This document shows positions 1 through 13,639 of a DNA stretch of 13,639 nt, piece after piece. The stretch is from the IMG/VR virus record IMGVR_UViG_3300045988_119152, positions 1 to 13,639 of that record. One strand, 5' to 3'. A program made the translations under genes and the position numbers. Position 1 is the stretch's first letter, and every line of letters starts with the position of its first letter. Source of the DNA: a virus. The notes beneath the pieces were generated by a model that was given only the letters and a program-made list of their open reading frames with translations, was not told where the DNA came from and did not search any database.

Positions 1-81
1 CGGTAGATTAACACCGTGGGCGGACATTTGTCTTTCCCCCATGGACACTTCGGCGTCCTTGACTGGCGGACAAGTGTGTGC
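1..81. repeat. Left inverted terminal repeat (ITR), 81 bp perfect
   Basis: Positions 1-81 are the exact reverse complement of 13559-13639, compared base by base. Similarity then decays to about 16/23 matches for 82-104 versus 13558-13536. The repeat reaches the exact window edges, as expected for the ends of a linear protein-primed replicon. Confidence 0.95.
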
Positions 82-146
82 GCACGGTGAACAGTGGCGT
101 TATACAAAATTGTGATAATGGTTATACGAAAATATTATACCAAGGG

Positions 147-179
147 ATAAAGAAAGACTGCGGAAATGCTCCGCAGTCT
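147..179 (-). terminator. Rho-independent terminator closing the minus-strand gene array
   Basis: On the minus-strand RNA, just after the tailspike stop (TAA, 190-188), the sequence is AGACUGCGGA-GCAUU-UCCGCAGUCU. This gives a perfect 10-bp stem (155-164 / 170-179) and a 5-nt loop, followed by UUCUUUAU (154-147). Confidence 0.8.
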
Positions 180-187
180 ATTCTCTA

Positions 188-1993
188 TTAGTTGATCGTG
201 CTTAAATCTTTCCATGTGCCTGGATTTCCTGTTGCAATGCAAACCCAACCGACAGGACTACCACTTGCAGGACTGCTGTTATAAACAACTTCGCCCAAAG
301 TGTGATTTCCGTCCGTTGGAGCGGCGTTACCGGCTTCAAAGGCATACAAGGAAATGCCTTTGAGCAACGACATTTTAGACCTATCAATCACATTTGCCGC
401 AATCAGCACGTTACCCGAGATATTTCCCGCTCCGCTATAAATTAGTGCGCTATTGTATCTTACAGCGGTATTTCCAAAAACGCACAGACCTTTTATATAA
501 CCTAAATTCATAGCAATTTGTGCCGTTGCACCTTCGTTGTTATTCAGATAGCAATTTCTAACTGACAACCCCTCGGTATGTGCACTGTCGCTACCCTCGC
601 AATAAATACACTCGCCGTTCATCCACTCGAAATAACAGGTATCAACGTCAATGTTGTAGCGCACGTTATTCACTGGGTTGATTGTGATGCCCCTCTGGCC
701 CTCAAAGTTACATTTGACAAACTTTATGGCTGCGCCGCTGTACAGAATTACAACATTAGATGCCTGTTTGGTATTGTCCAGAGGCAAAGCGAAATCGCAA
801 GAATCAAACAGCCAACTATTAGCTTGTTCAAGCAGTCTGACATTGGAAGGACTTGCCGAATCATTTTGTCCGAACATGCAATTTCTGACTGTAAAAGTCC
901 ATGCGTGATCTGCAATGATAGAGCTTGTGAAACGTCTGAAAATAATATCAGACAATACCCATTTCTGTGCATATTTGAAATTCATGCACACACCCTCGGT
1001 GTTTACGTTAAAGAGTGTCAGGTTTCTGATATATGATTCTTGAGTTGTTGTAGTGTCCGGCATTACAAAATCGAACAGCGTGTTAGCTTCTGATCTAAGA
1101 ATAGTTGCGTAGATATTCTCACCGAACATTTGAAGTCTGCGCGCTTTAGTTGTATCTAAATGCAAACTCGCCGTGATTCTGTATTCGCCGTTCGGCACAT
1201 AGATAGGCGTTTTATTTGTCTGGAAATTTTCAATCGCCTCCTGAAATGCTGTTGTATCATCGTGCACAGCATCGCCAACGGCGCCGAAATCACGAACGTT
1301 AATTACATGAATAGTGCCGCTTCCAATTTTTGCTTCAAGCGCTGCATCTGCTTCCGCTCTGGCCTGTGCTTCTGCTGCATCTGCTTCCGCTCTGGCCTGT
1401 GCTTCTGCCACAATCTTTTCATCCAGCGTTTTGTCTGCGTTTTTACGGTTCGAGATCTCGTCCTGTAACTCAGCGGACAGCGTGTTTACTTCGTTCGTGA
1501 TCGTCTCGCTCAGCATAGCAAAGAGATCGTGCACGTTGGTTTTCTTGCAGTTGGAGCCTTCAACGTACTTGTCACCGGCGTTGATATTCGTCGTAATCAG
1601 CAGAAGATCATTTTCCAACCACACCCAGTCACCGGCCTTGTGGTCAACGCTGGCCGTGGTGCTGTGCTGCTCGTCATACGGAGTGATCGCAGATCTCACA
1701 CTGTCCCAGAGCGCGGAGAAGTTACCGATCTTCGTCCAGTATTCCGTGCGATCCAGAGACACACCAGCCGGAACAGGCTGCACACTCAAGTAAGCGTTGC
1801 CGCTGCTATCCAAAACAACGGTGTTCGTCTCATACTGGCTTGTGATATCCCATATAATAGGATTTGCGTACTTCACGGAATTGATCGCGACAAAGTTCGT
1901 AATCTCTGTCTCAAGCTCTTTCAGCACGTGAAGGATCCAGTCAAGGTTAAGTTCATGGAAATTCGCATAGGGGAAATTTTCAAACAGACCCAT
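188..1993 (-). CDS. Tailspike / receptor-binding appendage with right-handed beta-helix (pectate-lyase-like) domain, phi29 gp12 position
   Basis: 601-aa ORF. ATG at 1993 has GGAGG (2004-2000) 6 nt upstream; the stop is TAA. The N-terminus MGLFENFPYANFHELNLDWIL resembles an anchor motif I recall from Firmicutes phage tail-fibre proteins. An Ala/Glu coiled coil follows. VINVRDFGAVGDAVHDDTTAFQEAI is the typical opening of pectate_lyase_3-type beta-helix depolymerase domains, and Asn/Gly/Cys-rich beta-helix-like sequence follows it. It is the last gene of the structural module, as gp12 is in phi29. Confidence 0.8.
   Translation of the reverse strand: MGLFENFPYANFHELNLDWILHVLKELETEITNFVAINSVKYANPIIWDITSQYETNTVVLDSSGNAYLSVQPVPAGVSLDRTEYWTKIGNFSALWDSVRSAITPYDEQHSTTASVDHKAGDWVWLENDLLLITTNINAGDKYVEGSNCKKTNVHDLFAMLSETITNEVNTLSAELQDEISNRKNADKTLDEKIVAEAQARAEADAAEAQARAEADAALEAKIGSGTIHVINVRDFGAVGDAVHDDTTAFQEAIENFQTNKTPIYVPNGEYRITASLHLDTTKARRLQMFGENIYATILRSEANTLFDFVMPDTTTTQESYIRNLTLFNVNTEGVCMNFKYAQKWVLSDIIFRRFTSSIIADHAWTFTVRNCMFGQNDSASPSNVRLLEQANSWLFDSCDFALPLDNTKQASNVVILYSGAAIKFVKCNFEGQRGITINPVNNVRYNIDVDTCYFEWMNGECIYCEGSDSAHTEGLSVRNCYLNNNEGATAQIAMNLGYIKGLCVFGNTAVRYNSALIYSGAGNISGNVLIAANVIDRSKMSLLKGISLYAFEAGNAAPTDGNHTLGEVVYNSSPASGSPVGWVCIATGNPGTWKDLSTIN
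1341..1406. repeat. Perfect 33-bp x 2 tandem duplication inside the tailspike coiled coil
   Basis: gctgcatctgcttccgctctggcctgtgcttct occurs at 1341-1373 and again, identical, at 1374-1406. On the minus strand it encodes the in-frame duplicated 11-aa unit seen as AEAQARAEADAAEAQARAEADAA. Confidence 0.9.
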
Positions 1994-2004
1994 ATTAGAC
2001 CTCC

Positions 2005-2697
2005 TTAATAAATTTGCAAGCAGAAACGATTTTTGAAGCTGGTAATAATCACATCGATGATATTATACAGTGAAACTTCGCGTTCACTCTCAAGCATCTG
2101 CTGCGATGTTGTCACGCCGATATTACCATGGGCACGGCCAGACCTCACCAGATCGCGTTTTTCCGTTTCGCTGGTGGTGGTGTCAGCTGCCGTTTTCACC
2201 TTCACGTTTCCTTCCTCGTGCTGCTCTGTGTCGCTGCTGCCGGTCTGCGTGTCCGTGTCCTTCTCCGTTGGCGTGAAGTCCGTCTCGTTGTAAGCACTCA
2301 CAAACTTCTGCCCGGTTGCGCCTGCCGTGGTTGTTCCGCTTGTGTTGGTGCTGCCGGTGCTGTCCGTGGTGCTGCTGCCGGTGGTTTCAGCGTCCACGCT
2401 GCGCGCGCTGTTCTCGCCCTCCGTCCATTCCTCTGTCCGGTCATAGTTCTCAATAGGGTTATAGTCCAGCAGCGTGGTTTTATAAAGTCTCGTCCAGATG
2501 GGAAGCTCTTTATGGCTCCACCGGCCAATCATGGCCTGCATAAAAACCGCATCCGGATAGATAACTTCAAGTTCCGCCGTTTCTGCAAGCAGATTGTCTT
2601 TCACAAGATCCGCGTCCAGCCCATCCGGAAGAACCAGCTCACACAGAATACCGGGGTTAAACCTTGACAGACCCAGCAGGCTTAATGTTGCTGTCAT
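2005..2697 (-). CDS. Virion structural protein, probable lower collar (phi29 gp11 position), with Ser/Thr-rich central region
   Basis: 230-aa ORF. ATG at 2697 is preceded by GAAGGAGGTG with a 6-nt spacer; the stop TAA is at 2005-2007. It lies between the portal and the tailspike, as gp11 does in phi29. The function is assigned by synteny only. I did not recognise a diagnostic motif, apart from a conserved-looking LLDYNPIENYDR segment. Confidence 0.5.
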   Translation of the reverse strand: MTATLSLLGLSRFNPGILCELVLPDGLDADLVKDNLLAETAELEVIYPDAVFMQAMIGRWSHKELPIWTRLYKTTLLDYNPIENYDRTEEWTEGENSARSVDAETTGSSTTDSTGSTNTSGTTTAGATGQKFVSAYNETDFTPTEKDTDTQTGSSDTEQHEEGNVKVKTAADTTTSETEKRDLVRSGRAHGNIGVTTSQQMLESEREVSLYNIIDVIITSFKNRFCLQIY

Positions 2698-3595
2698 TGT
2701 TCACACCTCCTTCAAACGCATCCGGGAAACGCCAATCAACGGAGAGATCCAAGCCAAACATGTTGTTAGTGGCTTTGATGCTTTCTTTCAGTTCTTCCAG
2801 CCACATGGCACATTTGCTCTGTGTTTCAATGTTGTTAGCGTTGACTTCATCCGTCACGAGCCGCTCACGCTTGTCCGTGTTCGCGTTTGGAATGCCGATA
2901 TCCGTATCAAACATTGCTTCAATTTTCCGCATGTCGCTTAGAATGTCGGAGCTGATATAGACATTTTTCAAATTCTGCTCAAACGCTTCCCACGCCTTAC
3001 TGCCATCGTCCCGGTAAAGGCTCTTGTCAATCACGGCGCAAACTTCACCGCTGGCAATGCGATCATACAGCTTTTTGAATGTCTCCGCTGCCGTCTTGTT
3101 ACCAGCAGCGAACACATACGCAAGATGTGTGTTCAATAAGTTCATTCCGACAGATTCAGCACACAAGGCCAGCATATCAGCATAATAGCCGACGATATCC
3201 ATAAGGCCGCCATAGTCCGGCTGTAAGCGGATGATAGTGCACTGACTTCCGATGCGCGGTTGAAGATTTCCGCGCAGCAGGGGATTTGTGATAATTGCGT
3301 TGGTAGGCTGGTAGAAAACGTTGTAACCGGTCAGCGTGCAGCCTTGCGGAATAACGCCGAACTTCGATGTATTGACCACAGCGAGATAGCCCCAGCAGTA
3401 CAGCACATAAAGAAAATAATTCTTGCTCCAGTGCTCCGGCAATTTCCACTTGTACAGCGACATTGCTTTTTGCAGCAGGTAGCGCCGGAAATACTGAGAA
3501 AGTGCTGTGTTTCTGCAATGGACTGTGGACGGACTGACAGCAGCGTTAGCAGCGTTGATATAGTCATAGCAGGCCGGAATGCCGTTACCAATCAT
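2657..3595 (-). CDS. Portal / upper collar (head-tail connector) protein, phi29 gp10 family
   Basis: 312 aa (phi29 gp10 is about 309 aa). ATG at 3595 is preceded by GAAAGGAGA. The segment GIPNANTDKRERLVTDEVNANNIETQSKCAMWLEELKESIKATNNMFGLDLSVDWRF closely parallels the remembered phi29 gp10 segment [57 protein letters not shown]. N-terminal YFRRYLLQKAMSLYKWKLPE resembles gp10 YLNYLQSLAYQLFEWENLP. The 3' end overlaps the next gene by 41 nt. Confidence 0.85.
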   Translation of the reverse strand: MIGNGIPACYDYINAANAAVSPSTVHCRNTALSQYFRRYLLQKAMSLYKWKLPEHWSKNYFLYVLYCWGYLAVVNTSKFGVIPQGCTLTGYNVFYQPTNAIITNPLLRGNLQPRIGSQCTIIRLQPDYGGLMDIVGYYADMLALCAESVGMNLLNTHLAYVFAAGNKTAAETFKKLYDRIASGEVCAVIDKSLYRDDGSKAWEAFEQNLKNVYISSDILSDMRKIEAMFDTDIGIPNANTDKRERLVTDEVNANNIETQSKCAMWLEELKESIKATNNMFGLDLSVDWRFPDAFEGGVNNDSNIKPAGSVKV

Positions 3596-3599
3596 GCAA

Positions 3600-4136
3600 T
3601 CATCTCCTTTCTTTAAGTTTGAATAGCAGCCATATAGGGATTAGCTTCGCCGGTGGATGCCCGGCCAGATACTCATACCAGTATTCAGCTTGTCGGCTTC
3701 GCGCCGGTTGCGGCTTGACCGCTGGCCGCTCATAATTATAAAGGAATGCCTGCGCGAGATATGCAGGCGGCTTGTCAGACTGCGAGAACTCGCGGAACGT
3801 CATAGGGTACAGGCTCGTGCTGATCCATTGCAGATGGTTCTCAAGCTCGTATTGTATGCGCTCCATTTCTTTCTGGCCGTTGTCTTGCCATCCATCCCCG
3901 GCCCATTCTGAATAATGCGTGTACGGCGTCCACTGTACAAGACCATAGCCGCCAACGAACGGATCCAGATTTTCCCAGATTCCGGGATTAAGGGTGCTTT
4001 CCGTTTGCATGTTTCCGAACATGGCCGCGATAGCGTTCACCGTCCAGCCCTGAGCTGTGAAGAATGCATACATAATATCTGCATTGTTTTGCATTTCAGA
4101 TATGGACAGATATCTGTTTCCAGTGATCCATGGCAT
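3600..4136 (-). CDS. Phage tail lysozyme-fold peptidoglycan hydrolase (virion-associated lysin candidate)
   Basis: 178 aa. ATG at 4136 has GAGGT 9 nt upstream. NADIMYAFFTAQGWTVNAIAAMFGNMQTESTLNPGIWENLDPFVGGYGLVQWT matches the remembered signature of the phage tail lysozyme family (GNxxxES...NP...GyGLvQWT). It is embedded among tail and portal genes, which suggests a virion-associated enzyme. Confidence 0.75.
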   Translation of the reverse strand: MPWITGNRYLSISEMQNNADIMYAFFTAQGWTVNAIAAMFGNMQTESTLNPGIWENLDPFVGGYGLVQWTPYTHYSEWAGDGWQDNGQKEMERIQYELENHLQWISTSLYPMTFREFSQSDKPPAYLAQAFLYNYERPAVKPQPARSRQAEYWYEYLAGHPPAKLIPIWLLFKLKERR

Positions 4137-4147
4137 AGCAGCTTACC

Positions 4148-5554
4148 TCATTCATAGAAATAGCCGGATTCCAGATAGCTTTTAACCATTCGATTTTCTT
4201 CACTCGTTCCGGATAGTGCAAGATCCGGATCTGCAATCACCTGATATCCGGGCATGGTGGACAGCTTCACCTTTTTACAATAGGGTCTGCCGCGATCCTC
4301 GTTATCATCAGAGACCACCGGAAGAAACTTTGCGTAAAGCGTGGGCGCGCTGGTGAAGTTGGCAACTGTGCCATTGCTGCCGCTGGTGGCGAAATCCGGC
4401 ATGGACGCATTGACCATATCGCCTATCATGTTCGCGCCCGCCGTAATCGCTCCGACAGGATTGAACCAGTTTTTAGCAACGTTCGCCGCGCCATTCACGG
4501 CGGTTAGTGCCATATTCAAATAGTTCTGGCCGATCTGCGCGATCTGAACCGGCACGCCGTACTGACCGCGCCGGACGGCAATCGCATAGTCTTTCATTCC
4601 GGCTTTGAGATGCATGTCTGCAATGCCGGTGGTATAGTCCACCGTGTAAGACATGTTCAGCGCTTCTTCATTGATGATCGACGTGGTATCAATCGGAATA
4701 ACACCCCAAACGCGGCTGTCTAACGTGTACTGGGAGAATGGTGCAGCGTTTAGATATTTCCCTCGTGTAGCTGCTTGCGGATGTTTTGGGATTGTGATAA
4801 TGGCAGCGGAAGGCAGCACACCAGATGCTTTCAGCTTCGCGGCGCTCACCGGCACGTTCCACCAGCCGAACGGGATAGAAGTTACCTTTGTTCCAGACGG
4901 GGCATTGTCCGGATACCACATGACGCCTGTGACATATTGCATGGGATTGAACAGGACTTTAAGAAGATCCGCGGAGATCTCTGTAATTTCACCCGTCCAC
5001 GAAACATCACCCATCAGATAGGCCATAAATGCCCGGAACTGGACTTCACTGAAAACATAGTAAGCAACTGCGCCGATTGCATCAGCGCTGTTATTTACAA
5101 TGCCGACAACATAGGATCCGCCTGAGATCGCCGGTACCGTGGGCCATGTAGATGTAGATTCCGCGCTCAAAGTGGCATCGCCCTTAGCCGGGTACAGTCC
5201 GTCAATCACGCTTCCGTCAGAAGAAAAGGCGCTGCGTGTCACATACTGAAAACTTTCTCCGATGCTGTTCTTCCAGCTGGCCAGCACGTCCACTTCCATG
5301 TGCGCCGTCCATAGGTGGCCTTCCTTGACCGTCCAATCGGTGATAAAGTAGTATCGGCCGCCAAGATCCGAAATGTGCGCATAATTATAATAGGATGGAT
5401 TTCCTTTTAGTCCAAAGTCAAAAGTTAGCTCTGGCCTAATCAGGCTTGTAGGCATTTTCAAAATTGCAGTGTGCTGCTTCTGAGTAACGGCGGCGTCCGG
5501 ACGCTTCGTGCTGTTCTCGCGCTTCTTAAATTCATACAGCGTGACATTTAACAT
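4148..5554 (-). CDS. Tail knob / distal tail protein, phi29 gp9-like
   Basis: 468 aa. ATG at 5554 has a strong RBS, AAGGAGG, 4 nt upstream. NYAHISDLGGRYYFITDWTVKEGHLWTAHMEVDVLASWKNSI parallels the remembered phi29 gp9 segment [46 protein letters not shown]. It lies directly after the capsid gene, as gp9 does apart from the head fibre. Confidence 0.65.
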   Translation of the reverse strand: MLNVTLYEFKKRENSTKRPDAAVTQKQHTAILKMPTSLIRPELTFDFGLKGNPSYYNYAHISDLGGRYYFITDWTVKEGHLWTAHMEVDVLASWKNSIGESFQYVTRSAFSSDGSVIDGLYPAKGDATLSAESTSTWPTVPAISGGSYVVGIVNNSADAIGAVAYYVFSEVQFRAFMAYLMGDVSWTGEITEISADLLKVLFNPMQYVTGVMWYPDNAPSGTKVTSIPFGWWNVPVSAAKLKASGVLPSAAIITIPKHPQAATRGKYLNAAPFSQYTLDSRVWGVIPIDTTSIINEEALNMSYTVDYTTGIADMHLKAGMKDYAIAVRRGQYGVPVQIAQIGQNYLNMALTAVNGAANVAKNWFNPVGAITAGANMIGDMVNASMPDFATSGSNGTVANFTSAPTLYAKFLPVVSDDNEDRGRPYCKKVKLSTMPGYQVIADPDLALSGTSEENRMVKSYLESGYFYE

Positions 5555-5565
5555 ATAGCCTCCTT

Positions 5566-5596
5566 AAAATTGGGCGGACACAAGGAAGTGCCCGCC
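5566..5596 (-). terminator. Hairpin plus U-tract after the capsid gene (candidate partial terminator/attenuator)
   Basis: In the minus-strand RNA between the MCP stop (5605-5607) and the next RBS, the sequence is GGCGGGCAC-UUCCUU-GUGUCCGCC. This is a 9-bp stem with one G-U pair (5573-5581 / 5588-5596), followed by CAAUUUU (5572-5566) and then AAGGAGG. Confidence 0.5.
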
Positions 5597-5604
5597 TCCG
5601 CTTG

Positions 5605-6819
5605 TTAATCCAGCAACAGCAGCACGCCCTTTTCCGTCATATCCATGATCGCGCGGAAATTGACGTGATCGAACGTGTTCCAGTAACCACCCTTCGCGTT
5701 GAACGGGGTGACAGCTGCCCAGCTGTTTACCTGCGCGTAACCCAGCGCGTCCTCGTCAAAGATAACGCCGAAAATACCGGCATGTTCCACAGCTTCACCG
5801 GTCTTGATCGCGCCGGTGGTGTCGGTATAGATGGGTGTCACATTGATGCTGTCAGGCGTTTCGATGGACTGCCAGAAGTTCACGCCCTCGTAATCAGTAT
5901 ATTTCAGGTAGTTGTCATGGAAGCTATTAGTCTTGACCATTGCATCAAACTGATCCAAGACTTTTGCATAAAGGTAGACCTTCTGCCGGTTAGCAGGCGT
6001 GTGACGCAATACATGCTTCTCGCCGATGACCGTCTGAAACATTTCGGTTCGTTCAGTCATCAGTCTGGAAATTGTAGAGATTCGCGCATAAACCCACTGC
6101 ATGAAGCTAATATAGTTATCCGGCTGGTAAACGGTCTGCGCATTCAACTTCAATCCGGTTTCGGTATTATACTCGGACAGCAGGTGCACCACACGCGCGT
6201 TCTGATTCTCGCTCAGCAGAGCGCCGATATAGTTCGCCAGCTGGCCGCGCGCGATATTCTCGCGGTACTGTTCCAGCTTATCAGAGCGGTTGCCGGTGAT
6301 GAGAGAGTTGAACCGCATGAATTCTTCCGGGCTGGTGAAGGCCACATCATAGCTATCCTTATGAATAGTGTAACAATTCTCATAGACGCTCTGTCCGTAG
6401 AAGTTCACCTGCAAAATATCAGGCTTGTTCAACCCGTACATGTCCACGCTCTGACCCTCGCCCAGCGCATTGGGCGCTTTACTTACATCATAGCCAGCTG
6501 GCCATGTAAAGCGCGCATCGTCCTCGATGGGTTTATCAGCAATGGACAGCTTACGGACGGCGTTACCCCATCGCTCCATGGACATTTCAAGTCCACCGAA
6601 CTTCCGGGTATAGGGCCGGATGCTGAAAATTGTCTTTCCCCACATCTGGGATAGCGCGTTGATAATGGGATCATAGCCGGTTTTCAGCGCAGTCTGGGCC
6701 ACGCTCACGAATTCGCCGGGCGTTGTGGCCGTGATGACCGTCTGGCCGGTGGCCTGCTGCACGATGCTTTTCAGGATCGTTCCGGCCTGAAAAACCATCA
6801 TATCATTTACGTTTGCCAT
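5605..6819 (-). CDS. Major capsid protein (phi29 gp8-like, HK97-fold expected)
   Basis: 404 aa. ATG at 6819 follows AAAGGGGAAAAA. It lies directly downstream of the scaffold-like gene. C-terminal FGVIFDEDALGY and FNAKGGYWNTFDHVNF resemble the remembered phi29 gp8 segments AVLVDKDWFMVY and RNPRGLYWNYYYHVW. A hairpin attenuator follows the gene, which is typical for a highly expressed capsid gene. Confidence 0.8.
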   Translation of the reverse strand: MANVNDMMVFQAGTILKSIVQQATGQTVITATTPGEFVSVAQTALKTGYDPIINALSQMWGKTIFSIRPYTRKFGGLEMSMERWGNAVRKLSIADKPIEDDARFTWPAGYDVSKAPNALGEGQSVDMYGLNKPDILQVNFYGQSVYENCYTIHKDSYDVAFTSPEEFMRFNSLITGNRSDKLEQYRENIARGQLANYIGALLSENQNARVVHLLSEYNTETGLKLNAQTVYQPDNYISFMQWVYARISTISRLMTERTEMFQTVIGEKHVLRHTPANRQKVYLYAKVLDQFDAMVKTNSFHDNYLKYTDYEGVNFWQSIETPDSINVTPIYTDTTGAIKTGEAVEHAGIFGVIFDEDALGYAQVNSWAAVTPFNAKGGYWNTFDHVNFRAIMDMTEKGVLLLLD

Positions 6820-6822
6820 ATT

Positions 6823-7182: not shown

Positions 7183-7839
7183 TCATATTCTTCCTTTCTT
7201 TAAATAAATCAGAATGACGTGCGCCACGCTGCGGCTTGAGCAGACCTGCCGCCGCTCGTGGTCAAGGTATACCTGTGAACTGCCGCCGCAGTCAAGCATA
7301 ACGGCATTTTCCCAGCCGTAGCTTTGAAGTAGCTTTGCAAGCTGTTCCGGCGTTTTCTTTGCTCGTGATCCGTCCTTAGACGCATAGAGACAAAGCCGCT
7401 TCTGCCCGTTGACGTACTTTGTGCCGATAGCCGTTCTTCCACGCTTGCCGCCTTGGGCGGCGTTGTAGATCGGCTTCTTGATTGCTTTCCCGTCCATCAG
7501 GATATGACTGCAAGCAATGAAATTTCCCCACGCTTCATTGGGGACTAAATCAAAATGAAAGCTGTTTGCGGTGTAGTTGTCCCAGAGATAACCACGATAC
7601 AGGTCTTTCCCATGGTACAGCGTTACACCGTTCCGGCGCAGAGGGCAAACAGGGTTGCCGTTCCTCATATTATATAAGGTGCCGTTAATTGCATAGTCTG
7701 CGCCGGTTGCGCTGATAATGGCTGATAGGGATTTCCGCTTTCGTGTTCGGTGGTTTGGTTTGTTCAGGTAAATTTCAATTTTTTCAATATCATCCAAAGG
7801 AATTGAAACCGCAACCTCATTCTCTTTCTTCGCTGCCAT
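7183..7839 (-). CDS. Phosphodiester glycosidase family protein (NAGPA / DUF2233-like); candidate cell-wall lytic enzyme
   Basis: Three motifs match the remembered NAGPA-domain pattern (AINGGFF ... RTAIG ... LDGGGSS): GADYAINGTLYN, GNPVCPLRRNGV and GRTAIGTKYVNGQKRLCLYASKDG...TPEQLAKLLQSYGWENAVMLDCGGSSQVY. The start was moved from the track GTG (7848) to ATG 7839, which is 10 nt after AAGGAG, giving 218 aa. It lies directly after the holin candidate, with a 23-nt overlap. Confidence 0.65.
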   Translation of the reverse strand: MAAKKENEVAVSIPLDDIEKIEIYLNKPNHRTRKRKSLSAIISATGADYAINGTLYNMRNGNPVCPLRRNGVTLYHGKDLYRGYLWDNYTANSFHFDLVPNEAWGNFIACSHILMDGKAIKKPIYNAAQGGKRGRTAIGTKYVNGQKRLCLYASKDGSRAKKTPEQLAKLLQSYGWENAVMLDCGGSSQVYLDHERRQVCSSRSVAHVILIYLKKGRI

Positions 7840-8041
7840 GGCCAACACGCTCCTTTAGAAGTGATACAACCTCCTTCAAATCTCGCAGTGCTTCGGTGTT
7901 TTCCTTGACAACTTCCGTCCAGCGCTCACTTTCTGCCGCGTGGCTTTCGCGCTCCTTGTTCTGCATCCAGAACATGACACCGACACAAACGATAGGGAAG
8001 CCCAGATTGCTTACAAGCTGGCTAATGGTACCAACGTCCAT
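7817..8041 (-). CDS. Small single-pass membrane protein, YvrJ-like; putative holin
   Basis: The start was moved to ATG 8041 (MDVGTISQLVSNLGFPIVCVGVMFWM...), which has AAAGGAA about 7 nt upstream, giving 74 aa. The track start at 8089 has no RBS. It has one hydrophobic helix with the GFPI motif of YvrJ-type proteins, then a charged coiled-coil tail. It lies immediately upstream of the lytic enzyme candidate. Confidence 0.5.
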   Translation of the reverse strand: MDVGTISQLVSNLGFPIVCVGVMFWMQNKERESHAAESERWTEVVKENTEALRDLKEVVSLLKERVGHGSEERE

Positions 8042-8160
8042 TCGCATTTCCTTTCTGCCGGATATTATAATAATGAGCAAGGGCATCATGCGTTAGTCAG
8101 ACGCGTGCACCAGCTTCCGGCTGTGACTTTGTGCGGCCCTTGCTCACCTCAAATATACCA
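8042..8160 (-). other. Largest internal non-coding gap, with nested inverted repeats and a TATAAT box (module boundary: terminator, late promoter or structured RNA)
   Basis: A perfect 11-bp inverted repeat (8074-8084, tgagcaagggc, with 8136-8146, gcccttgctca) encloses 51 nt. The enclosed sequence can form two small hairpins: CAGC-loop-GCTG at 8111-8123, and GCGU-cugacua-ACGC on the minus-strand RNA. A minus-strand TATAAT lies at 8069-8064, about 23 nt before ATG 8041. Confidence 0.6.
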
Positions 8161-9198
8161 TCATTTGAGATATTTTGTCAACAGGTGCTCCGCTAAGTAT
8201 TCCTCAAATACAATTTTTTTCTTCATGTGCGCATCCCATAACCAGCCGAATGTGCGCTTGAAGCGCTGCACGTCCGCTTCGCTGTCGCTAAATTCCGGTG
8301 GACTGCCGGACTTATGCAGCGAAACATAATATGTGCCGTCTGACTTGTGCCGGTAGCAGCAGATCTTCCCGATTGCGCATATTGGAACGAACTCGCGTAG
8401 GGGCCTGCTCCGGATGTTGCTGAAATCATTGAATGAAAATTTATTATCCAGCGCCATTTCGGAAAAGCGCGTGCCCTCGGTGGCCTTATACAATACGGTG
8501 TTTCGCTTCTCCTCGGAGATCGGCGATTTTTGAAGCATGTAGAGACACAAACCTCGTGCATTGTCCTGATACACTTCGCGGCCCTTTGCTAACATGGCGT
8601 TTGCCGTCTTGACAAGGTTGAAACCTACAAAAATAGGATTGGCAACATCGTTGGCGTTTGCAAGACAGAGAAGCTGCACGGGCTTCCGGCCTTGAAGCTC
8701 CCTGTTTCGGTTGACCGTTTCATAACAGTTCATAAGCGCTTCAAACTCGTTCTTAATAGGGCGCTCGTGCCGCTCTGGGACGAATTCATCAAAGATCATG
8801 AGATCCACATCTGACGCGTCAAAACCTCGGATATTTGAAAATGTGGAGAGTGCAGCTGAATAGCCGATTGGCCCACCGTCCGGAACCTGCTTGCCTTCTT
8901 CCGTTTCCTTATAATAGTAAAACGCGCTGTTATACTTCGTGATCGGAGCGCATGAGATATTTAGCTCGTGATCTTCGCAGATCCGCTTGAATGGTGAAAA
9001 TTCCGGACGTGTCACGATATCGGCTTGGGCCTGCGTTCTGCGCAGAAATAGGAATGTGCGCTTTTCGTTCAGCGTCTCCAGCAGGCTTCCGTAGGTCTTG
9101 CCGGTGGCCCGCCCTCCAACAGCAAAGTTGAAGGGCAGGCCCTTAGCCAGCAGGCCATGCACATCTAAATAACCACTATCCAGATATACACGGCTCAT
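8161..9198 (-). CDS. DNA encapsidation (packaging) ATPase, phi29 gp16-like
   Basis: 345 aa (phi29 gp16 is about 332 aa). Walker A is AVGGRATGKTYGS near the N-terminus. Walker B is DVDLMIFDEF. There is no separate nuclease or large-terminase C-domain, which is consistent with packaging of terminal-protein-capped unit-length DNA. Confidence 0.9.
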   Translation of the reverse strand: MSRVYLDSGYLDVHGLLAKGLPFNFAVGGRATGKTYGSLLETLNEKRTFLFLRRTQAQADIVTRPEFSPFKRICEDHELNISCAPITKYNSAFYYYKETEEGKQVPDGGPIGYSAALSTFSNIRGFDASDVDLMIFDEFVPERHERPIKNEFEALMNCYETVNRNRELQGRKPVQLLCLANANDVANPIFVGFNLVKTANAMLAKGREVYQDNARGLCLYMLQKSPISEEKRNTVLYKATEGTRFSEMALDNKFSFNDFSNIRSRPLREFVPICAIGKICCYRHKSDGTYYVSLHKSGSPPEFSDSEADVQRFKRTFGWLWDAHMKKKIVFEEYLAEHLLTKYLK

Positions 9199-9200
9199 AG

Positions 9201-9536
9201 TTACACCAAAGTGCAGGTGATGAACTCACGGCCTGCCTTGCTCTGTCCGCTGATAACTTCGATTGTGTAGTCATCGCCGTCCATCAGATCCGCAATGTTC
9301 ATGAAATCGCGCTTGAAGGTGTCGCTGTTGGTTGCGCAAACGCCGCCGTCCTTGTCCATGACGGACAGCACTTCAACTTCCTTGCCGTCCTTGTTTACGT
9401 CCTTGTACAAGCAGTACGCGGCCACATCGATCTGAACGCCGATGAAGTCCTTCATCTTCTTGATAGCCGGATCCAGAGTGAGCTTGTAGCTTTCGCGCTT
9501 GTTCAGTTCCTTGTTGCTCTTAATGATAGTAGCCAT
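9201..9536 (-). CDS. Hypothetical protein of the replication module (possible ssDNA-binding protein, unproven)
   Basis: 111 aa. ATG at 9536 has a good RBS, AAAGGAGA, 8 nt upstream. It lies between the DNA polymerase and the packaging ATPase. I recognised no diagnostic motif. The SSB idea rests only on size and neighbourhood. Confidence 0.55.
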   Translation of the reverse strand: MATIIKSNKELNKRESYKLTLDPAIKKMKDFIGVQIDVAAYCLYKDVNKDGKEVEVLSVMDKDGGVCATNSDTFKRDFMNIADLMDGDDYTIEVISGQSKAGREFITCTLV

Positions 9537-9562
9537 AGTGATAATCTCCTTTAAAATTAATG

Positions 9563-11587
9563 TTATTCGTATTCGTAGCGAATTTCGGTTAGCAGCCGCT
9601 TATAATCAGCGGCAAGGCCCAATGTGTAAGTGCTGCGACGTAGAGAGACGTTAGAAGTTATTCTAAGGGCGCGGCCCTCGGCCTGATACTCGCGATACTC
9701 ACCAACCGGCATATCATTGTAGACTGCTTCAAGTCCTCCGGCTTCTTCAAAAGTAAAACCCTCATGAAATGCTGTGATACCTCCGTGTGCTTCAAGCTCT
9801 TCACCCCCTTTCGTTTTCGCCACGCCTGCGATTGTACAAATCAGTTTAGTATCCGGCGTTTCGCGGTAAACATATTTCTTCGCTCCCATCGTGCGAAACT
9901 CACACATGTCATGCTCTTGCTCATACACGCCCATGTAGTGAGTTTCACCGCTGGGATCGGTGGCAAACGCTCCACTTTTACGACTGTCTTTTATACGCGC
10001 GTTGTTAAATTTCTTCAAGTTGATTTCGCCTAAATATTTCACGCTGTCTGTGTCGCAGTAAACAAACTGCGGCGCGTTGGGATCGTCTGGATCTCCGTGG
10101 GCAAGCTGTATACCTTCTTCCAGCCGGTAGCGTGCCCATGCCGTCACCCACACCCCCCATTGATAAGCGAGAAATGCTTTCCTGTTATGCGCAAGCAGCA
10201 GCCCTGCTTCATCCTCGTACTGTTCCTCGAACATATTGTTTATAAATAGGATGGACTGCTTCACCGGATCTTGAGCACACATGCCGTATAGGGAATTCAG
10301 CTTCTTCTTAGATTTTTCATACAGCAGCTCTTGCCCTTCTACGTTTTTCAGCTCTGTTTTATAGTGGTAGTATTGGCAGATCGTTTTTATAAGTGGTCGC
10401 GGAAGATAGCCATATCGCGCACACGCAACGTCATAAAATTTGATATCTGTCCAGTCATACTCGGAAATCAAAATCTTGAGATCAATGTCTGTTATGGTGG
10501 TTTCTAAGTAGTCAGCGGAAATGATTCTTCCGTTGTCCACCAGCGCGTTCTCTGTGTGTCGGCATTTCGATAGGCTTAGATAGGGACAGCCCCAATCAAT
10601 ACGCCGCAGATGTGGCCCAGTCAACGCTACGCGCATGATGCAGGCTTTCTCACGGACGCCCAGCATTTTTATAACTTCTTCATAGGGCAGATCGCCCAGC
10701 CGGTAAAATTCGCTGATTGGAAATTTACAGTTGCACATCACGTCCGGGTAGCTGCTGGATCTGTCGGCGCTGTGGACGTTATGCAGCGTGTATTTAGTGT
10801 AGTAGCGGTTCGCGTGGGTGTTACCACCCCGAAACGCTTCGCGGAGCATCTTGTAAATCTCGTAATCTGGCAGCTGTGACTTTACAAAGCTGTATGACAC
10901 ATCCGACATTGCTTTCTTGGCATCCCGCCGAACGTATCCCGTTGACGTTAGAGGGAAAGTATAGATCGTATCGCCGTCATGCTCCATTTCTATCTGGATG
11001 GCTTCCACAAGGCCCTGCACATCATGCACGCAATAGGCTAGCTCTGATTCGCTCAGTTCCGTCCATGGGTAGCGGATCTTGTCATAATCAAATGTGCCGG
11101 ACAGCTTCGCATGCTGCACGCCCATTTTCTTGGTGTATGTGTCCAGATTCATGTTGCTGTGGAGATATGAGCAGCGAAACTCAAAGCAATCCCACATATC
11201 ACACTTTAGGACTTTACGCGATTTAATGGCAAATACATCATCTTGATCAAAGTAATAGATACCCTTTAAAAATTGGAATTCATAGGACAAGTTGTGAACG
11301 AATACAGGCAGGAACACATCATCAAGAACGCTTCGCAGGTGGTTCTGGAATTCTAAGAATTCTTCCCACGTCCGGCCTACAACTGTGTATTTAGTGCCAA
11401 ATTGCCACTGCCACACATACATAAAGGATTGCTCAATGTCCGGAAGTCTGGTTGTCTCAATGTCAAAGGCTGTAATCAGATCCTTGTATTTTCGTCTTTT
11501 CTTCGTGCGCTGGTTGCCCGGTTTGCGCTTCACCAGAGGAATGTTTGCAAGCCAATCATAAGGAAATTCAGCTGCACTGATAATCAC
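9563..11587 (-). CDS. Protein-primed family-B DNA polymerase
   Basis: 674 aa.
- Exo I: FDIETT (aa 41-46).
- Exo II-like: HNLSYEFQF (aa 98-106).
- Exo III: YCVHD (aa 185-189).
- Motif A: DRSSSYPDV (aa 275-283).
- Motif B: KLNSLYGMCAQ (aa 429-439).
- Motif C: YCDTDS (aa 510-515; verified at 10060-10043).
- KxY: AKKYVY (aa 569-574).
The start is GTG at 11587, overlapping the upstream stop as GTGA. The first in-frame ATG is only at codon 56. Confidence 0.95.
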   Translation of the reverse strand: MIISAAEFPYDWLANIPLVKRKPGNQRTKKRRKYKDLITAFDIETTRLPDIEQSFMYVWQWQFGTKYTVVGRTWEEFLEFQNHLRSVLDDVFLPVFVHNLSYEFQFLKGIYYFDQDDVFAIKSRKVLKCDMWDCFEFRCSYLHSNMNLDTYTKKMGVQHAKLSGTFDYDKIRYPWTELSESELAYCVHDVQGLVEAIQIEMEHDGDTIYTFPLTSTGYVRRDAKKAMSDVSYSFVKSQLPDYEIYKMLREAFRGGNTHANRYYTKYTLHNVHSADRSSSYPDVMCNCKFPISEFYRLGDLPYEEVIKMLGVREKACIMRVALTGPHLRRIDWGCPYLSLSKCRHTENALVDNGRIISADYLETTITDIDLKILISEYDWTDIKFYDVACARYGYLPRPLIKTICQYYHYKTELKNVEGQELLYEKSKKKLNSLYGMCAQDPVKQSILFINNMFEEQYEDEAGLLLAHNRKAFLAYQWGVWVTAWARYRLEEGIQLAHGDPDDPNAPQFVYCDTDSVKYLGEINLKKFNNARIKDSRKSGAFATDPSGETHYMGVYEQEHDMCEFRTMGAKKYVYRETPDTKLICTIAGVAKTKGGEELEAHGGITAFHEGFTFEEAGGLEAVYNDMPVGEYREYQAEGRALRITSNVSLRRSTYTLGLAADYKRLLTEIRYEYE

Positions 11588-12243
11588 AAGAAGTCTTTCA
11601 GCTCCTTGTATAGATCGTCGGAGCTTTTCTCAATAACATTCCGCTCTTGCTTGTATGGCTTGTTCTTTTCCTCCTGCCACGCCTCGAAATCGCGTAGGAC
11701 CTGCGCTGTTTTGTCTTTGCGTTCAGCAGCTTTCTCAAAGGCTTCGCTATTCCGGATTGTCTCGTAAAAATCCAGCGCAACCGTGGATCCATAGCCGCGC
11801 ATCATACCATTTTTCCACTGCCGGAAAAACTCGCCCAGATCGACAAAGTTAGATTCATTTACAAAGGTGTAACCGTGCTTGTTGAAAGTCTTAATTACTT
11901 TGTCTCTGGCTCTCTTAATGCCGCGCAGCGTTCCGGTTCGCGCGGTCATCATCTTCGCAAGTTCTGCAAGCAGCAGCTTCATTTCATATGGTTTCAGTTC
12001 AGAGGATGGCTTATAACGATCCTTATTATAATAGTATGTTTTGCTGGATCTGCCGATTTCCTCGGCTTCGATTCGCTTTAGGCGCTTCTGTGCGATTGCG
12101 CGCAAGCGTTGGTACTCGCTCTTGATGTTTTCTGGTGTCCATACATCCGCATGCCGGATCGCGTCCAGTGTGTAGAGGTCAGGCGTGTCCTTGGGGTCAA
12201 TCATTTCACCGGTTGCAGGGTCTGCTATTCTCACAAATTTCAT
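11584..12243 (-). CDS. Candidate terminal protein (TP) for protein-primed replication
   Basis: It lies immediately upstream of the DNA polymerase and is translationally coupled to it (GTGA overlap), which is the conserved TP-polymerase arrangement of phi29-like phages. It is 219 aa from ATG 12243, with AAGGAGA 8 nt upstream; the track GTG at 12273 was rejected. It is basic and helical, with KSEYQRLRAIAQKRLKRIEAEEIG loosely recalling phi29 TP KAEYARLVKNTKAKIARTKKKYG. The assignment is positional and compositional. Confidence 0.55.
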   Translation of the reverse strand: MKFVRIADPATGEMIDPKDTPDLYTLDAIRHADVWTPENIKSEYQRLRAIAQKRLKRIEAEEIGRSSKTYYYNKDRYKPSSELKPYEMKLLLAELAKMMTARTGTLRGIKRARDKVIKTFNKHGYTFVNESNFVDLGEFFRQWKNGMMRGYGSTVALDFYETIRNSEAFEKAAERKDKTAQVLRDFEAWQEEKNKPYKQERNVIEKSSDDLYKELKDFL

Positions 12244-12358
12244 GCTGTGCGATCTCCTTCCGGAACAGTTCACGGCAAAGGGCGGAAGCGCTCATGTCGT
12301 TCTGCGCTGCGATCTGTTCAATCTGGTGCTTCATCTCTGCCGTGACGGATAGCGTCAT
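12206..12358 (-). CDS. Ribbon-helix-helix (CopG/Arc-like) DNA-binding protein candidate
   Basis: MTLSVTAEMKHQIEQIAAQNDMSASALCRELF fits a beta-strand, helix, helix RHH pattern. ATG 12358 overlaps the upstream stop as ATGA (12358-12355). The alternative start, ATG 12394, adds a basic arm (MRSRFKHGECTH) and has GAAAGGAG 14 nt upstream. The 3' end overlaps the TP gene start by 38 nt. The long N-terminal part of the 112-aa track ORF is out-of-frame overlap with the upstream gene. Confidence 0.5.
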   Translation of the reverse strand: MTLSVTAEMKHQIEQIAAQNDMSASALCRELFRKEIAQHEICENSRPCNR

Positions 12359-12558
12359 GTGGGTGCATTCCCCGTGCTTAAAACGGCTTCGCATTGTTCT
12401 CTGGTCAGCTCCTTTCGTATGAGATTGATGCGGATATCTGGATGCGTTTGCTTGATAATAGCGGCACATTGCAGCGCCGGTGCCATGCCGAAAAATAGAT
12501 ATGTGGTCTTGGGCCGATACGTGTAGTGGACTGTCAGCAACCATCTATTACCGCTCAT
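12355..12558 (-). CDS. Hypothetical early protein (67 aa)
   Basis: ATG at 12558 has a strong RBS, AGGAGG, 9 nt upstream. It overlaps the upstream gene by 11 nt and is coupled to the downstream RHH ORF by ATGA. I recognised no motif. Confidence 0.7.
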   Translation of the reverse strand: MSGNRWLLTVHYTYRPKTTYLFFGMAPALQCAAIIKQTHPDIRINLIRKELTREQCEAVLSTGNAPT

Positions 12559-12745
12559 TTAAATAATCCTCCTGATATTCTTCACCGGTTAGAATTGCAT
12601 ACATGATCTTTGCAGTAGCATATCTTGCCAAACTACGCCGATATACTTCGCTATCCCATCCTTCACGGTTAAGCCAATAACGCACCTTTTCCGCCAGATC
12701 ATTGATATAACGATTAGCATTTTCTTTCCGTAACTGGTTAACCAT
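12548..12745 (-). CDS. Hypothetical early protein (65 aa; 78 aa if the upstream ATG is used)
   Basis: ATG 12745 (MVNQLRKEN...) has GAAAGGAGA 7 nt upstream. The alternative ATG 12784 overlaps the stop of the upstream 41-aa ORF as ATGA. The protein looks helical and charged, with no recognised motif. Confidence 0.7.
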   Translation of the reverse strand: MVNQLRKENANRYINDLAEKVRYWLNREGWDSEVYRRSLARYATAKIMYAILTGEEYQEDYLNER

Positions 12746-12780
12746 TGTATAATCTCCTTTCCAACAAGTGTGATCCCTTC

Positions 12781-12906
12781 TCATTGTATTCCCAGATTTC
12801 CACAGTCATTATATAAATAGAGAGAACGAACAAAAATCCGAGCATAATCATCTGACCAGTAGGAAAATTGTTCGCCATTCTTGTAGTAGATCAAACGGTA
12901 GCGCAT
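12781..12906 (-). CDS. Small hypothetical early protein (41 aa), not in the ORF track
   Basis: Hand translation gives MRYRLIYYKNGEQFSYWSDDYARIFVRSLYLYNDCGNLGIQ. ATG 12906 has GGAAAGGAGG 8 nt upstream. The stop TGA (12783-12781) overlaps the ATG at 12784. Confidence 0.5.
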   Translation of the reverse strand: MRYRLIYYKNGEQFSYWSDDYARIFVRSLYLYNDCGNLGIQ

Positions 12907-13158
12907 TTAATACGCCTCCTTTCCAAAATACCGCCGTGCTAACTGTGCCATGCGGCGATCGTCTTTCATGAGTAGCATTAGCATATTCCAGACTTTCCAT
13001 TCACCTTTGCGAATTGCAACCTCTTGGTCACACTCTCCGTATTTGTCACGCTTGCTTGAGTAGAAATCAAAAGCAATGCTTTACCATTCTTCAACGTGCT
13101 TCACAATGGTTTTATAACGGATTTCATCGTTGATGTTTTTATAATGAATTTCATTCAT
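12907..13158 (-). pseudogene. Early ORF of 83 sense-equivalent codons interrupted by one in-frame TAA (25 aa + stop + 57 aa)
   Basis: ATG 13158 has AAGGAGGG 7 nt upstream and encodes MNEIHYKNINDEIRYKTIVKHVEEW, ending at TAA (13083-13081). The same frame then stays open for 57 more codons (SIAFDFYSSKRDKYGECDQEVAIRKGEWKVWNMLMLLMKDDRRMAQLARRYFGKEAY). It ends at TAA 12909-12907, directly abutting the next gene's ATG. The first in-frame ATG, GTG or TTG comes only 32 codons after the internal stop. Confidence 0.45.
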
Positions 13159-13161
13159 GAT

Positions 13162-13398
13162 TTAACCCTCCTTAATTACTTCACACGCTTCTTCTCTGGT
13201 CTTTCCGAAATGACCGTCTTGTATATTGCTTACAGGTAAGAACAACCAAAGATCTTTATCTTCAACACACCACGTAATAATGCCAACCTTAATAAGATCA
13301 GCAACCGTTCCAACCACGCCGTAAAGAATTGTTTTATCATCGTTGCGGACTTTTCGCAAGGTGGTTTCTTCGTAGCCTTTGTTCTTCATGAATTTCAT
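13162..13398 (-). CDS. Hypothetical early protein (78 aa), first gene of the genome
   Basis: ATG 13398 is preceded by GGAGAAAGGA with an 8-nt spacer; the stop is TAA at 13164-13162. It is the first ORF after the terminal AT-rich region. I recognised no motif. Confidence 0.7.
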   Translation of the reverse strand: MKFMKNKGYEETTLRKVRNDDKTILYGVVGTVADLIKVGIITWCVEDKDLWLFLPVSNIQDGHFGKTREEACEVIKEG

Positions 13399-13461
13399 TT
13401 TAATTATCCTTTCTCCGTTCGGCTATTGTGTTCTGTGTTCTGCTCTTGTTTGATTGTCTAT

Positions 13462-13490
13462 ATCTTATCATAAAAAATACTAAAAAGCAA
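13462..13490 (-). promoter_or_regulatory. Candidate early promoter (sigma-70/sigma-A type, extended -10)
   Basis: The minus-strand reading is TTGCTT (13490-13485), a 17-nt spacer ending in TGA, then TAAGAT (13467-13462). That is a TGn extended -10. It lies in the AT-rich tract between the right ITR and the first gene. It would give a leader of about 55 nt that contains a tandem heptamer (13427-13440). This is a motif match only. Confidence 0.35.
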
Positions 13491-13558
13491 TAACTTTTAT
13501 CATTATATATTCTAATATCAACTATAAGAAAATAATATAGCTCCACTGTCCACCACAT

Positions 13559-13639
13559 GCACACACTTGTCCGCCAGTCAAGGACGCCGAAGTGTCCATG
13601 GGGGAAAGACAAATGTCCGCCCACGGTGTTAATCTACCG
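13559..13639. repeat. Right inverted terminal repeat (ITR), 81 bp perfect
   Basis: It is the exact reverse complement of 1-81. See the left ITR entry. Confidence 0.95.

Follow-up and report, generated by a model that had tools for sequence, protein, structure and literature searches.

A small phi29-like podophage genome from the human gut and a conserved three-way-junction RNA ahead of its late genes

The prohead or packaging RNA (pRNA) has been described as unique to phi29-type Bacillus phages, and both its origin and its necessity are regarded as unresolved (PMC5066667, PMC11476376). A structure-based search published in 2025 added 12 more pRNAs, and those that the accessible portion of that report names belong to Bacillus phages (PMC12670572), while a survey of the previous year placed more than 2,000 genomes in the phi29-like group (Evseev et al. 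2024, PMC11476376). The present work concerns a single small genome related to this group, the IMG/VR virus record IMGVR_UViG_3300045988_119152 (positions 1 to 13,639, the whole of which is referred to below as the window), and a structured RNA of 71 nt which is encoded in it between the packaging ATPase gene and the late genes. The RNA is conserved, is absent from Rfam, has not been reported previously, and was not covered by the original prediction made for this stretch of DNA, which dealt with the genome as a whole. A putative pRNA is reportedly also present in Lactococcus phage asccphi28 (Salasmaviridae).

Membership of the phi29-like group was judged by the hallmark set p2, p8, p9, p10, p11 and p16 (PMC11476376), and the window encodes a protein-primed family B DNA polymerase (PolB), a phi29-type major capsid protein (MCP), a gp9-type tail knob, a gp10-type portal and a gp16-type ATPase in a linear genome with inverted terminal repeats (ITRs). 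Phage phi29 itself (Salasmaviridae) shares with it the protein-primed PolB, the single-stranded DNA-binding protein (SSB), the gp16 ATPase, gp8, gp9, gp10 and the lysozyme domain of gp13, as well as the gene order 7-8-9-10-11-12 and a linear genome with ITRs. The two differ in that phi29 has a genome of 19.3 kb, ITRs of 6 bp and divergent early and late transcription, whereas the window has 13.6 kb, 81 bp and a single direction, so the original prediction was right that the genome is much smaller and its ITR far longer; phi29 also possesses p6, p4, head fibres and a pRNA of 174 nt at its left end, and the terminal protein (TP) and scaffold candidates of the window are not detectably homologous to its own. 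Within the gene set, PolB, the ATPase, MCP, portal, knob, lysozyme, SSB and tailspike are upheld by profile or fold, while TP and scaffold are placed by position only.

The perfect 81-bp inverted repeats that had been claimed do lie exactly at both edges of the window, with no mismatch. Within each repeat the pentamer GGACA recurs in a single orientation at a spacing of 21-25 bp that is kept in relatives (22-26, 43-47 and 68-72, with the mirror positions at the other end and a further copy at 13547-13551 at the right end only), and four copies within 100 nt have a Poisson probability of about 2e-5. Lying about two helical turns apart, these iterons are likely to be binding sites of an origin- or early-promoter protein, for example the ribbon-helix-helix (RHH) protein encoded near the right end. 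In every clade a motif resembling TTTCCCCC is found about 35 nt from the tip, including those whose ITR is otherwise different, and many relatives have terminal inverted repeats of 26-193 bp whose tips are conserved or homologous. In the contigs of four relatives (L018, L030, L031 and L046) an Illumina adapter (...GTGCTCTTCCGATCT, ending CCGATCT) runs straight into the tip, which reads G[C/T]GATAGATTAACC in the first three and GCGAAAACC in the last; since the adapter is ligated directly to the tip in all four, the tip is taken as a natural physical DNA end. Adapter remnants in public IMG/VR contigs are a contamination of the records, yet they form a useful mark of the physical genome end. The window starts CGGTAGATTAAC (CGGTAG...) where these relatives start GCGATAG..., and from this comparison of tips it probably lacks one terminal G at each end, in which case the true repeat would be 82 bp. 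The tips in all clades start GCG, GTG or GGG, which would fit initiation by sliding back or jumping back, like that of PRD1 or Bam35.

The completeness of the genome can be judged further from independent assemblies. The same polymerase is encoded on two other human-gut ENA assemblies of the same strain. The ENA contig L001 (13,405 bp) corresponds to window positions 82..13558 less a 72-bp repeat deletion in the scaffold gene, its cut falling precisely at the inner ITR edges, as would be expected of a de Bruijn assembler that meets a repeat, and contig L002 ends 5 nt from the window end. A polymerase scan of IMG/VR yielded 49 loci, every one on a contig of at most 14.3 kb, and the same ceiling holds for the longest contigs among the 120 listed of 737 tail-knob homologues and the 120 listed of 183 endolysin homologues. 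A search of 185,579 bacterial and archaeal species genomes (one representative each) gave only five matches, all on contigs of metagenome-assembled genomes and none longer than 12.5 kb. No relative was thus found in a chromosome or on a listed contig above 14.3 kb.

On this basis we assign a probability of roughly 0.88 to the reading that the window is the complete linear double-stranded DNA genome (probably one G short at each end) of an uncultured human-gut phi29-like podophage. The original prediction of an entire, self-sufficient protein-primed podophage genome between the ITRs is in this respect borne out, by the gene set as identified through Pfam and fold and by the termini of relatives. 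A different origin, in which the window would be a prophage piece, a linear phage-plasmid or an artefact with inverted ends made by the assembler, could appeal to the ability of fold-back chimeras to give such ends, to the existence of phi29-like phage-plasmids in Enterococcus, and to one relative, MT835998, with an odd internal copy of its end; we nevertheless consider it very improbable, being opposed by the many independent assemblies with homologous ITRs, by the adapter-joined tips, by the independent contig cut exactly where the ITRs begin, by the lack of relatives in the chromosomes searched or on listed contigs above 14.3 kb, and by the gene content, no integrase, partition/ParA or toxin-antitoxin gene having been found among the Pfam and PHROG matches of the window proteins. 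Several points do weigh against the reading of a complete phi29-like phage genome: the exact terminus is uncertain, given the discrepancy between the first bases of the window and those of its relatives; both the termini and the 5'-linked protein are deduced from assembled sequence alone; the TP candidate matches phi29 gp3 neither in sequence nor in fold; the match of the lower-collar protein is weak; and the host is assigned indirectly.

The closest relatives place the genome within a group that is already catalogued, so that the suggestion of an undescribed lineage does not stand. A megablast comparison with 50,697 GenBank phage records gave no nucleotide-level match to the window. The closest IMG/VR genome has a PolB 96% identical and an intergenomic similarity of about 83%, which is about genus level, and about five more exceed 70%; against a same-species threshold of at least 95% (identity multiplied by aligned fraction) the best IMG/VR value is thus 83%, and identity was found only to ENA metagenome contigs. 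Since the best similarity is about 83%, the window phage is a distinct and new species of an existing genus-level group, in a clade that is catalogued but uncultured and unclassified. Dozens of relatives are present in IMG/VR, and some are deposited in GenBank as “Caudoviricetes sp.” or “Podoviridae sp. ctFkM10”; the survey places ctFkM10 and MT835998 in MCP cluster 4 and terminase cluster 9, in the company of numerous human-gut genomes of 12-14 kb (PMC11476376). The genomes of these clusters (ctFkM10, BK015145, 13,701 bp; MT835998; IMG/VR UViG_3300045988_069437) share with the window its gene order, a size of 12.7-14.3 kb, its habitat, homologous ITR tips and the same 71-nt RNA, their PolB being 79-96% identical in the near group and 56% in MT835998; none is cultured and none has been classified by the International Committee on Taxonomy of Viruses. 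MT835998 departs from the single direction of the window in having convergent modules, with late genes rightward and replication and packaging genes leftward. The internal copy of its end lies at 175-251 of MT835998.1 and may be a mis-assembly.

By protein, the nearest GenBank entries are unannotated human-faecal contigs (MT835998: PolB 56%, MCP 57%), followed by Amedibacillus phages AD70P2 and AD70P3, the Astrithrvirus group and Vibrio phage K58 g2. AD70P2 and AD70P3 (12.3 kb, cultured) have the one-strand order of the window, namely tailspike, collar, portal, knob, MCP, scaffold, ATPase ... PolB, with proteins 29-37% identical (PolB 37%), but their GC content is 27% as against 49%, and unlike the window they have neither a separate tail lysozyme nor a NAGPA gene. 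They are filed under Guelinviridae at NCBI, and the window PolB is 33% identical to that of Clostridium phage HM2; the survey separates AD70P2 from the Clostridium members of that family (PMC11476376). The Astrithrvirus group (Salmonella phage astrithr and Acinetobacter phage Phanie, about 11.5 kb) and Vibrio phage K58 g2 (10.4 kb) are mini protein-primed podophages with PolB 31-36% identical to that of the window and related MCP and portal, which differ from it in their Gram-negative hosts and in the gene order ATPase-portal-MCP, and in which the tail knob is split or shortened (PMC11476376). With cultured relatives of 10.4-12.3 kb in existence, the idea that the window lies close to a new lower size limit is not supported.

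A pRNA was sought in the window because the phage has a phi29-type motor. Rfam scans of the whole window and of positions 8020-8200 (181 nt) gave no match to RF00044 (Phage_pRNA) at E<=10; the matches that were returned, CRISPR-DR21 (E=0.25) and HOXB13-AS1 (E=9.9), were set aside as chance. The 255-nt “gap” at 12907-13161 was ruled out as a pRNA site, as it is occupied by an 83-codon early open reading frame (ORF) that an in-frame TAA interrupts. The gap of 119 nt that separates the ATPase and holin genes, by comparison among relatives, is conserved and displays obvious compensatory changes. The RNA which it encodes consists of a closing helix of 10-13 bp, whose 3' strand is pyrimidine-rich and resembles an anti-Shine-Dalgarno sequence in all clades; a first arm made up of an invariant 4-bp GCAC/GUGC helix, a 7-nt internal loop on the 5' side, a further 4-bp helix and an invariant CGGAA loop; and a second hairpin, whose stem of 4-5 bp carries a 7-nt loop. 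This hairpin loop is complementary to five bases of the internal loop, so that a loop-loop pairing of 4-6 nt can form.

This structure is supported by covariation at several depths of sampling. In an alignment of 16 diverse sequences, 96.8% of cells are paired, as against 32-42% in slid controls, and double changes occur at 19/27 pairs; with 41 distinct sequences the paired fraction is 99.2%, and compensatory changes are seen at 24 of the 28 pairs. The loop-loop helix is 98% paired and occurs in at least nine versions, which include AGUCA/UGACU, GGUCA/UGACC, GACCA/UGGUC, UGUCA/UGACA, UGUGC/GCACA and GCUAUA/UGUAGC, and RNAalifold independently arrives at this three-way junction. A covariance model built from the relatives of the 16-sequence alignment, with the loop-loop helix left outside the model, finds exactly one same-strand match in each of 50 loci, including clades outside the seed, with scores of 70-85 bits in the 53%-PolB clade, 51 in MT835998 and 33-47 in the most distant. 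When the exact pattern of invariant positions was sought in 2.9 million IMG/VR contigs, 50 stretches were recovered, all on contigs of at most 14.2 kb and most of them belonging to relatives already included. There is also a weak model match at the equivalent place in MT836587, and the model has no match in the Astrithrvirus group or K58 g2. A hammerhead or other self-cleaving ribozyme was considered and rejected, since conserved cores are absent from the junction strands (0-1, 2 and 5 nt) and no Rfam family matches.

In the prohead-binding domain of the phi29 pRNA, helices A and C are followed by a 5'-sided CE loop, by a helix E of 4 bp that ends in a 6-nt loop, and by a D hairpin, the CE and D loops being complementary, and the layout of the 71-nt RNA matches this arrangement in each element (PMC5066667). 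Its CE-like, E-like and D-like loops are also alike in size to those of the pRNA family. The junction order A, C-CE-E, D and the covarying CE/D loops are thus both found in the new RNA, and a match to the RF00044 model is not. The members of RF00044 are of 120-174 nt, their C-like helix is about 9 bp long where that of the 71-nt RNA has 4 bp, and the A-like helix is short in the latter; they also constitute an early gene of their own, whereas the 71-nt RNA is embedded in the leader of the late mRNA. The phi29 loop-loop pairing was first taken for a pseudoknot and was later shown to be intermolecular.

One possible account of the RNA is that it is a miniature prohead or packaging RNA which is excised from the 5' terminus of late transcripts, assembles on the portal as a ring through intermolecular loop-loop pairing, and docks the gp16-type ATPase. 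The sequence of helices agrees with this, since a closing helix is followed, as in phi29 pRNA, by an arm with a 7-nt 5'-sided loop, a 4-bp helix and a 5-nt loop, and then by a hairpin with a 7-nt loop; so does the covariation of the internal-loop/hairpin-loop complementarity, as well as the presence of one copy in every full-length relative. A generic descriptor of the pRNA topology, composed for this comparison, gave a single match in phi29, inside the annotated pRNA gene, and a single match in the window, at the 71-nt RNA, both of which outscore every match in 20 shuffled genomes, and the motor proteins of the phage, a gp10 portal and a nuclease-less gp16 ATPase, are of the kind that depends on pRNA in phi29. 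The two RNAs, on the other hand, show no covariance-model similarity either way, in that the Rfam Phage_pRNA model misses the new RNA and the new model misses the phi29 pRNA. The closing helix of 10-13 bp also compares poorly with the ATPase-binding helix A of phi29 (about 25 bp), and by rough geometry a pentamer of such short arms seems too small for the portal stem. The portal N-terminus, moreover, is without the basic RKR motif used by phi29 gp10.

The genomic setting of the RNA argues for a second account, in which it is a cis-acting leader of the late operon with a pseudoknotted fold. Such a leader, whether recognised by a phage or host factor or exerting its effect on RNA polymerase or on the ribosome, would govern elongation, stability or translation for the lysis and structural genes and have no role in packaging. 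In the 41 distinct instances the RNA lies just ahead of the first late gene and, in nearly all of them, right after a near-consensus promoter: the -10 element ends 6 nt upstream of it in the window and 6-9 nt across the instances, the -35 element is TTGACA in most and TTTACA or none in a few distant ones, and the ribosome site of the first late gene follows 15-40 nt downstream (72 once) with no evident terminator. Even in MT835998, where the ATPase gene lies elsewhere and on the other strand, the RNA stays with the late operon. This fixed place counts against a packaging RNA, as does the fact that both arms are 4 bp from the junction, since with arms of equal length the loops could pair within one molecule; the anti-Shine-Dalgarno-like strand of the closing helix likewise favours a leader. 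A leader finds no match among Rfam families, however, and a stabiliser or simple operator would need no invariant CGGAA loop, no GCAC/GUGC helix and no covarying kissing pair, while the topology coincides with that of pRNA in a phage whose motor is of the pRNA-dependent type. Because sequence by itself cannot decide between the packaging RNA and the leader, they are given about equal weight, each falling somewhat short of even odds.

The gap that follows the ATPase gene in the cultured phage AD70P2 bears on the same question. In this 123-nt gap (6384-6506, minus strand) there are a near-consensus promoter and a similar three-way-junction fold, whose internal loop AUAUCCA faces a hairpin loop containing GGGAU; its score is not above background, and the covariance model does not detect it. 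No covariation support was obtained for this look-alike, since 1 nt separates AD70P3 from AD70P2 and the ATPase of the single IMG/VR relative is identical. Together with the weak match in MT836587 it is listed among the points in favour of a packaging RNA. That the 71-nt RNA is a genuine miniature pRNA processed from the late leader, such that the RNA-bridged motor occurs beyond the Salasmaviridae of Bacillus and probably in AD70P2 as well, is a proposal we put forward tentatively.

The features of the window are collected in the table that follows.

Table 1. Features of the 13,639-nt window, with the evidence on which each assignment is based.
Feature	Position	Strand	Evidence or remark
Left inverted terminal repeat (replication origin)	1..81		perfect reverse complement of 13559-13639; GGACA at 22, 43, 68; TTTCCCCC motif
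Degenerate inner extension of the repeat	82..138		partner 13502-13558; 12-13/20 bases identical per 20-nt bin (~65%)
Late-operon intrinsic terminator, 11-bp stem then T-rich run	155..179	-	directly after the tailspike stop
Tailspike/appendage, pectate-lyase-like beta-helix, 601 aa	188..1993	-	PF12708 E=2e-14; weak match to start of phi29 gp12
Probable lower collar / tail tube, gp11-like, 230 aa	2005..2697	-	synteny with phi29 and AD70P2
Portal / upper collar, gp10-like, 312 aa	2657..3595	-	PF05352 E=1e-17; hhalign 99.6%
Tail-associated lysozyme, 178 aa	3600..4136	-	PF18013 E=9e-32; 48% identity to phi29 gp13; resembles gp13 N-terminal domain
Tail knob, gp9-like, 468 aa	4148..5554	-	AF2 pLDDT 82; Foldseek E=4e-13 to phi29 gp9 (PDB 5fb5), TM ~0.55
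Major capsid protein, 404 aa	5605..6819	-	Phi29_MCP PF25622 E=2e-13; hhalign 94% vs phi29 gp8
Scaffold candidate, 119 aa, PAPVPQ tandem repeat	6823..7182	-	position only: directly upstream of MCP, like phi29 gp7
Endolysin candidate, NAGPA / phosphodiester glycosidase domain	7183..7848	-	PF09992 E=6e-13
Holin candidate, 74 aa, one hydrophobic segment	7817..8041	-	PHROG 4898 holin E=6e-6; hydropathy profile
Conserved three-way-junction RNA, 71 nt, covarying loop-loop pairing (pRNA-like candidate, or late-operon leader)	8075..8145	-	covariation
Presumed late promoter: TTGACA, 18 nt, TG-n-TATATT	8152..8181	-	11/12 consensus positions; strongest promoter-like site in window
DNA packaging ATPase, gp16-like, nuclease-less, 345 aa	8161..9198	-	PF05894 E=9e-22; 30% identity to phi29 gp16
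Single-stranded DNA-binding protein, gp5-like, 111 aa	9201..9536	-	PF17427 E=1e-4 (below cut-off); family profile hhalign 94% vs phi29 gp5
Protein-primed family B DNA polymerase, 674 aa	9563..11587	-	PF03175 E=3e-14
Terminal protein candidate, 219 aa	11584..12243	-	position: 4-nt overlap with PolB start
Ribbon-helix-helix (Arc/CopG-like) DNA-binding protein, 62 aa	12206..12394	-	PHROG 3431 E=1.5e-5; Pfam RHH_1 weak
Early small ORFs of 67, 65, 41, 83 (interrupted) and 78 codons	12355..13398	-	gene calls on identical ENA contig; conserved in relative L004
Right inverted terminal repeat (replication origin)	13559..13639		fourth GGACA just inside, position 89 from right end

The coding density of the window is 95%, every credible gene lies on the minus strand, an AGGAGG-type Shine-Dalgarno site stands 5' of most genes, and no tRNA gene was found in it. 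The Pfam matches of PolB, the ATPase, MCP, portal, tail lysozyme, NAGPA protein and tailspike pass the curated thresholds. Among the replication genes, the polymerase has its motifs intact (Exo I-III, Pol A, B and C, and KxY: DIETT, HNLSYEFQF, YCVHD, DRSSSYP, KKKLNSLYG, YCDTDS and KKY) together with segments that align with the TPR1 and TPR2 regions of phi29. Its Exo II motif HNLSYEFQF (residues ~95-103) has Glu in place of the catalytic Asp66 of phi29, and since the same substitution is common to AD70P2 and Phanie, it is a feature of the clade and not an error.

The 219-aa protein is designated a candidate terminal protein by its position, because no sequence or fold match to gp3 was obtained (hhalign to phi29 gp3, 0.3%); ORFs of about 200 aa occupy the same place upstream of PolB in AD70P2 and Phanie. 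The AF2 model of the candidate is all-alpha, and the loop modelled with the lowest confidence contains an invariant Tyr151-Gly-Ser153. Neither a profile search of PDB sequences nor Foldseek against the PDB returned anything for the candidate, and its matches in BFVD are confined to uncharacterised proteins from small podophages of a similar kind.

The early small ORFs gave no family matches in Pfam or PHROG, and a consensus scan for two early promoters near the right end produced no confident call. The 83-codon ORF (12907-13158, minus strand) has an in-frame TAA at 13081-13083 where relatives carry GAA (Glu), and the same TAA is present in both other assemblies of the strain; it may be a nonsense mutation tolerated in an early gene that is dispensable, or else a site of read-through.

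Among the virion and lysis genes, the tail knob had no sequence-level match in Pfam, in PHROG or by phmmer against PDB sequences, and the fold search alone succeeded, the model matching C1 gp12 and the Andhra knob as well (Foldseek, in the range E=4e-13 to 1e-8). The sole low-confidence stretch of this model is a 53-residue loop at residues 340-392, to which the long membrane-active loops of phi29 gp9 might correspond. The matches of the 230-aa lower-collar protein consist of an hhalign probability of 81% to gp11 over just 52 columns, a tblastn E=0.002 and a PHROG “adaptor Ad4” match at E=1e-4. The scaffold candidate gave no match to phi29 gp7 by hhalign. Its PAPVPQ repeat is encoded by an 18-bp tandem repeat of 7.4 copies (6965-7098), and since contig L001 has four fewer copies and is otherwise identical, the number of copies differs from sample to sample. 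In the tailspike gene, the AEAQARAEADAA coiled-coil segment contains a perfect 33-bp tandem duplication at 1341-1408. The length of the holin candidate is put at 74-90 aa, and the NAGPA protein is 39% identical to the annotated endolysin of Flavonifractor phage Chenonceau.

The host and lifestyle of the phage can be suggested with low to moderate confidence. A host in the Bacillota has been suggested for the representative genome of MCP cluster 4 (PMC11476376). The NAGPA protein is nearest, among cultured phages, to the endolysins of Flavonifractor plautii phages; an endolysin homologue search made for the host returned, among the matches listed, the phage clade's own orthologues and no bacterial names. 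The strong Shine-Dalgarno sites argue against a Bacteroidota host, and a Bacillota (Clostridia-like) bacterium is the likely host. As the search of the window proteins revealed no gene for an integrase, for partition or for a toxin-antitoxin system, a virulent, lytic lifestyle is probable, again at low to moderate confidence.

The life cycle that we propose follows the paradigm of phi29, PRD1 and Bam35. A complex of polymerase and TP would recognise the ITR ends and join the first nucleotide to the TP through a Tyr or Ser residue; judging by the 5'-GCG, GTG or GGG ends of relatives this nucleotide would probably be dGMP, which would allow sliding or jumping back. The polymerase would then copy each strand from both ends by strand displacement with the assistance of SSB, the GGACA iterons would be bound by a protein of the origin or of early promoters, for which the RHH protein is a candidate, and unit-length TP-DNA would be packaged by the ATPase at the portal.

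The genome is in itself ordinary, being one more species in a large and surveyed group of 12-14 kb gut phages, and its value is that of a clean reference running from end to end, in which the ITR tips and iterons are defined and the TP candidate has a conserved Tyr/Ser loop. The 71-nt RNA is the new element. It has the topology of pRNA at half its size, and it occurs in phages that share the motor proteins and have a cultured relative, which makes directly testable the questions that it raises, namely whether an RNA component of the motor is ancestral and what constitutes a minimal functional pRNA. If the RNA is a miniature pRNA, the RNA-bridged packaging motor would extend to the smallest phi29-like phages of the gut; if it is instead a cis-acting leader, it would represent a new class of phage regulatory RNA that is absent from Rfam.

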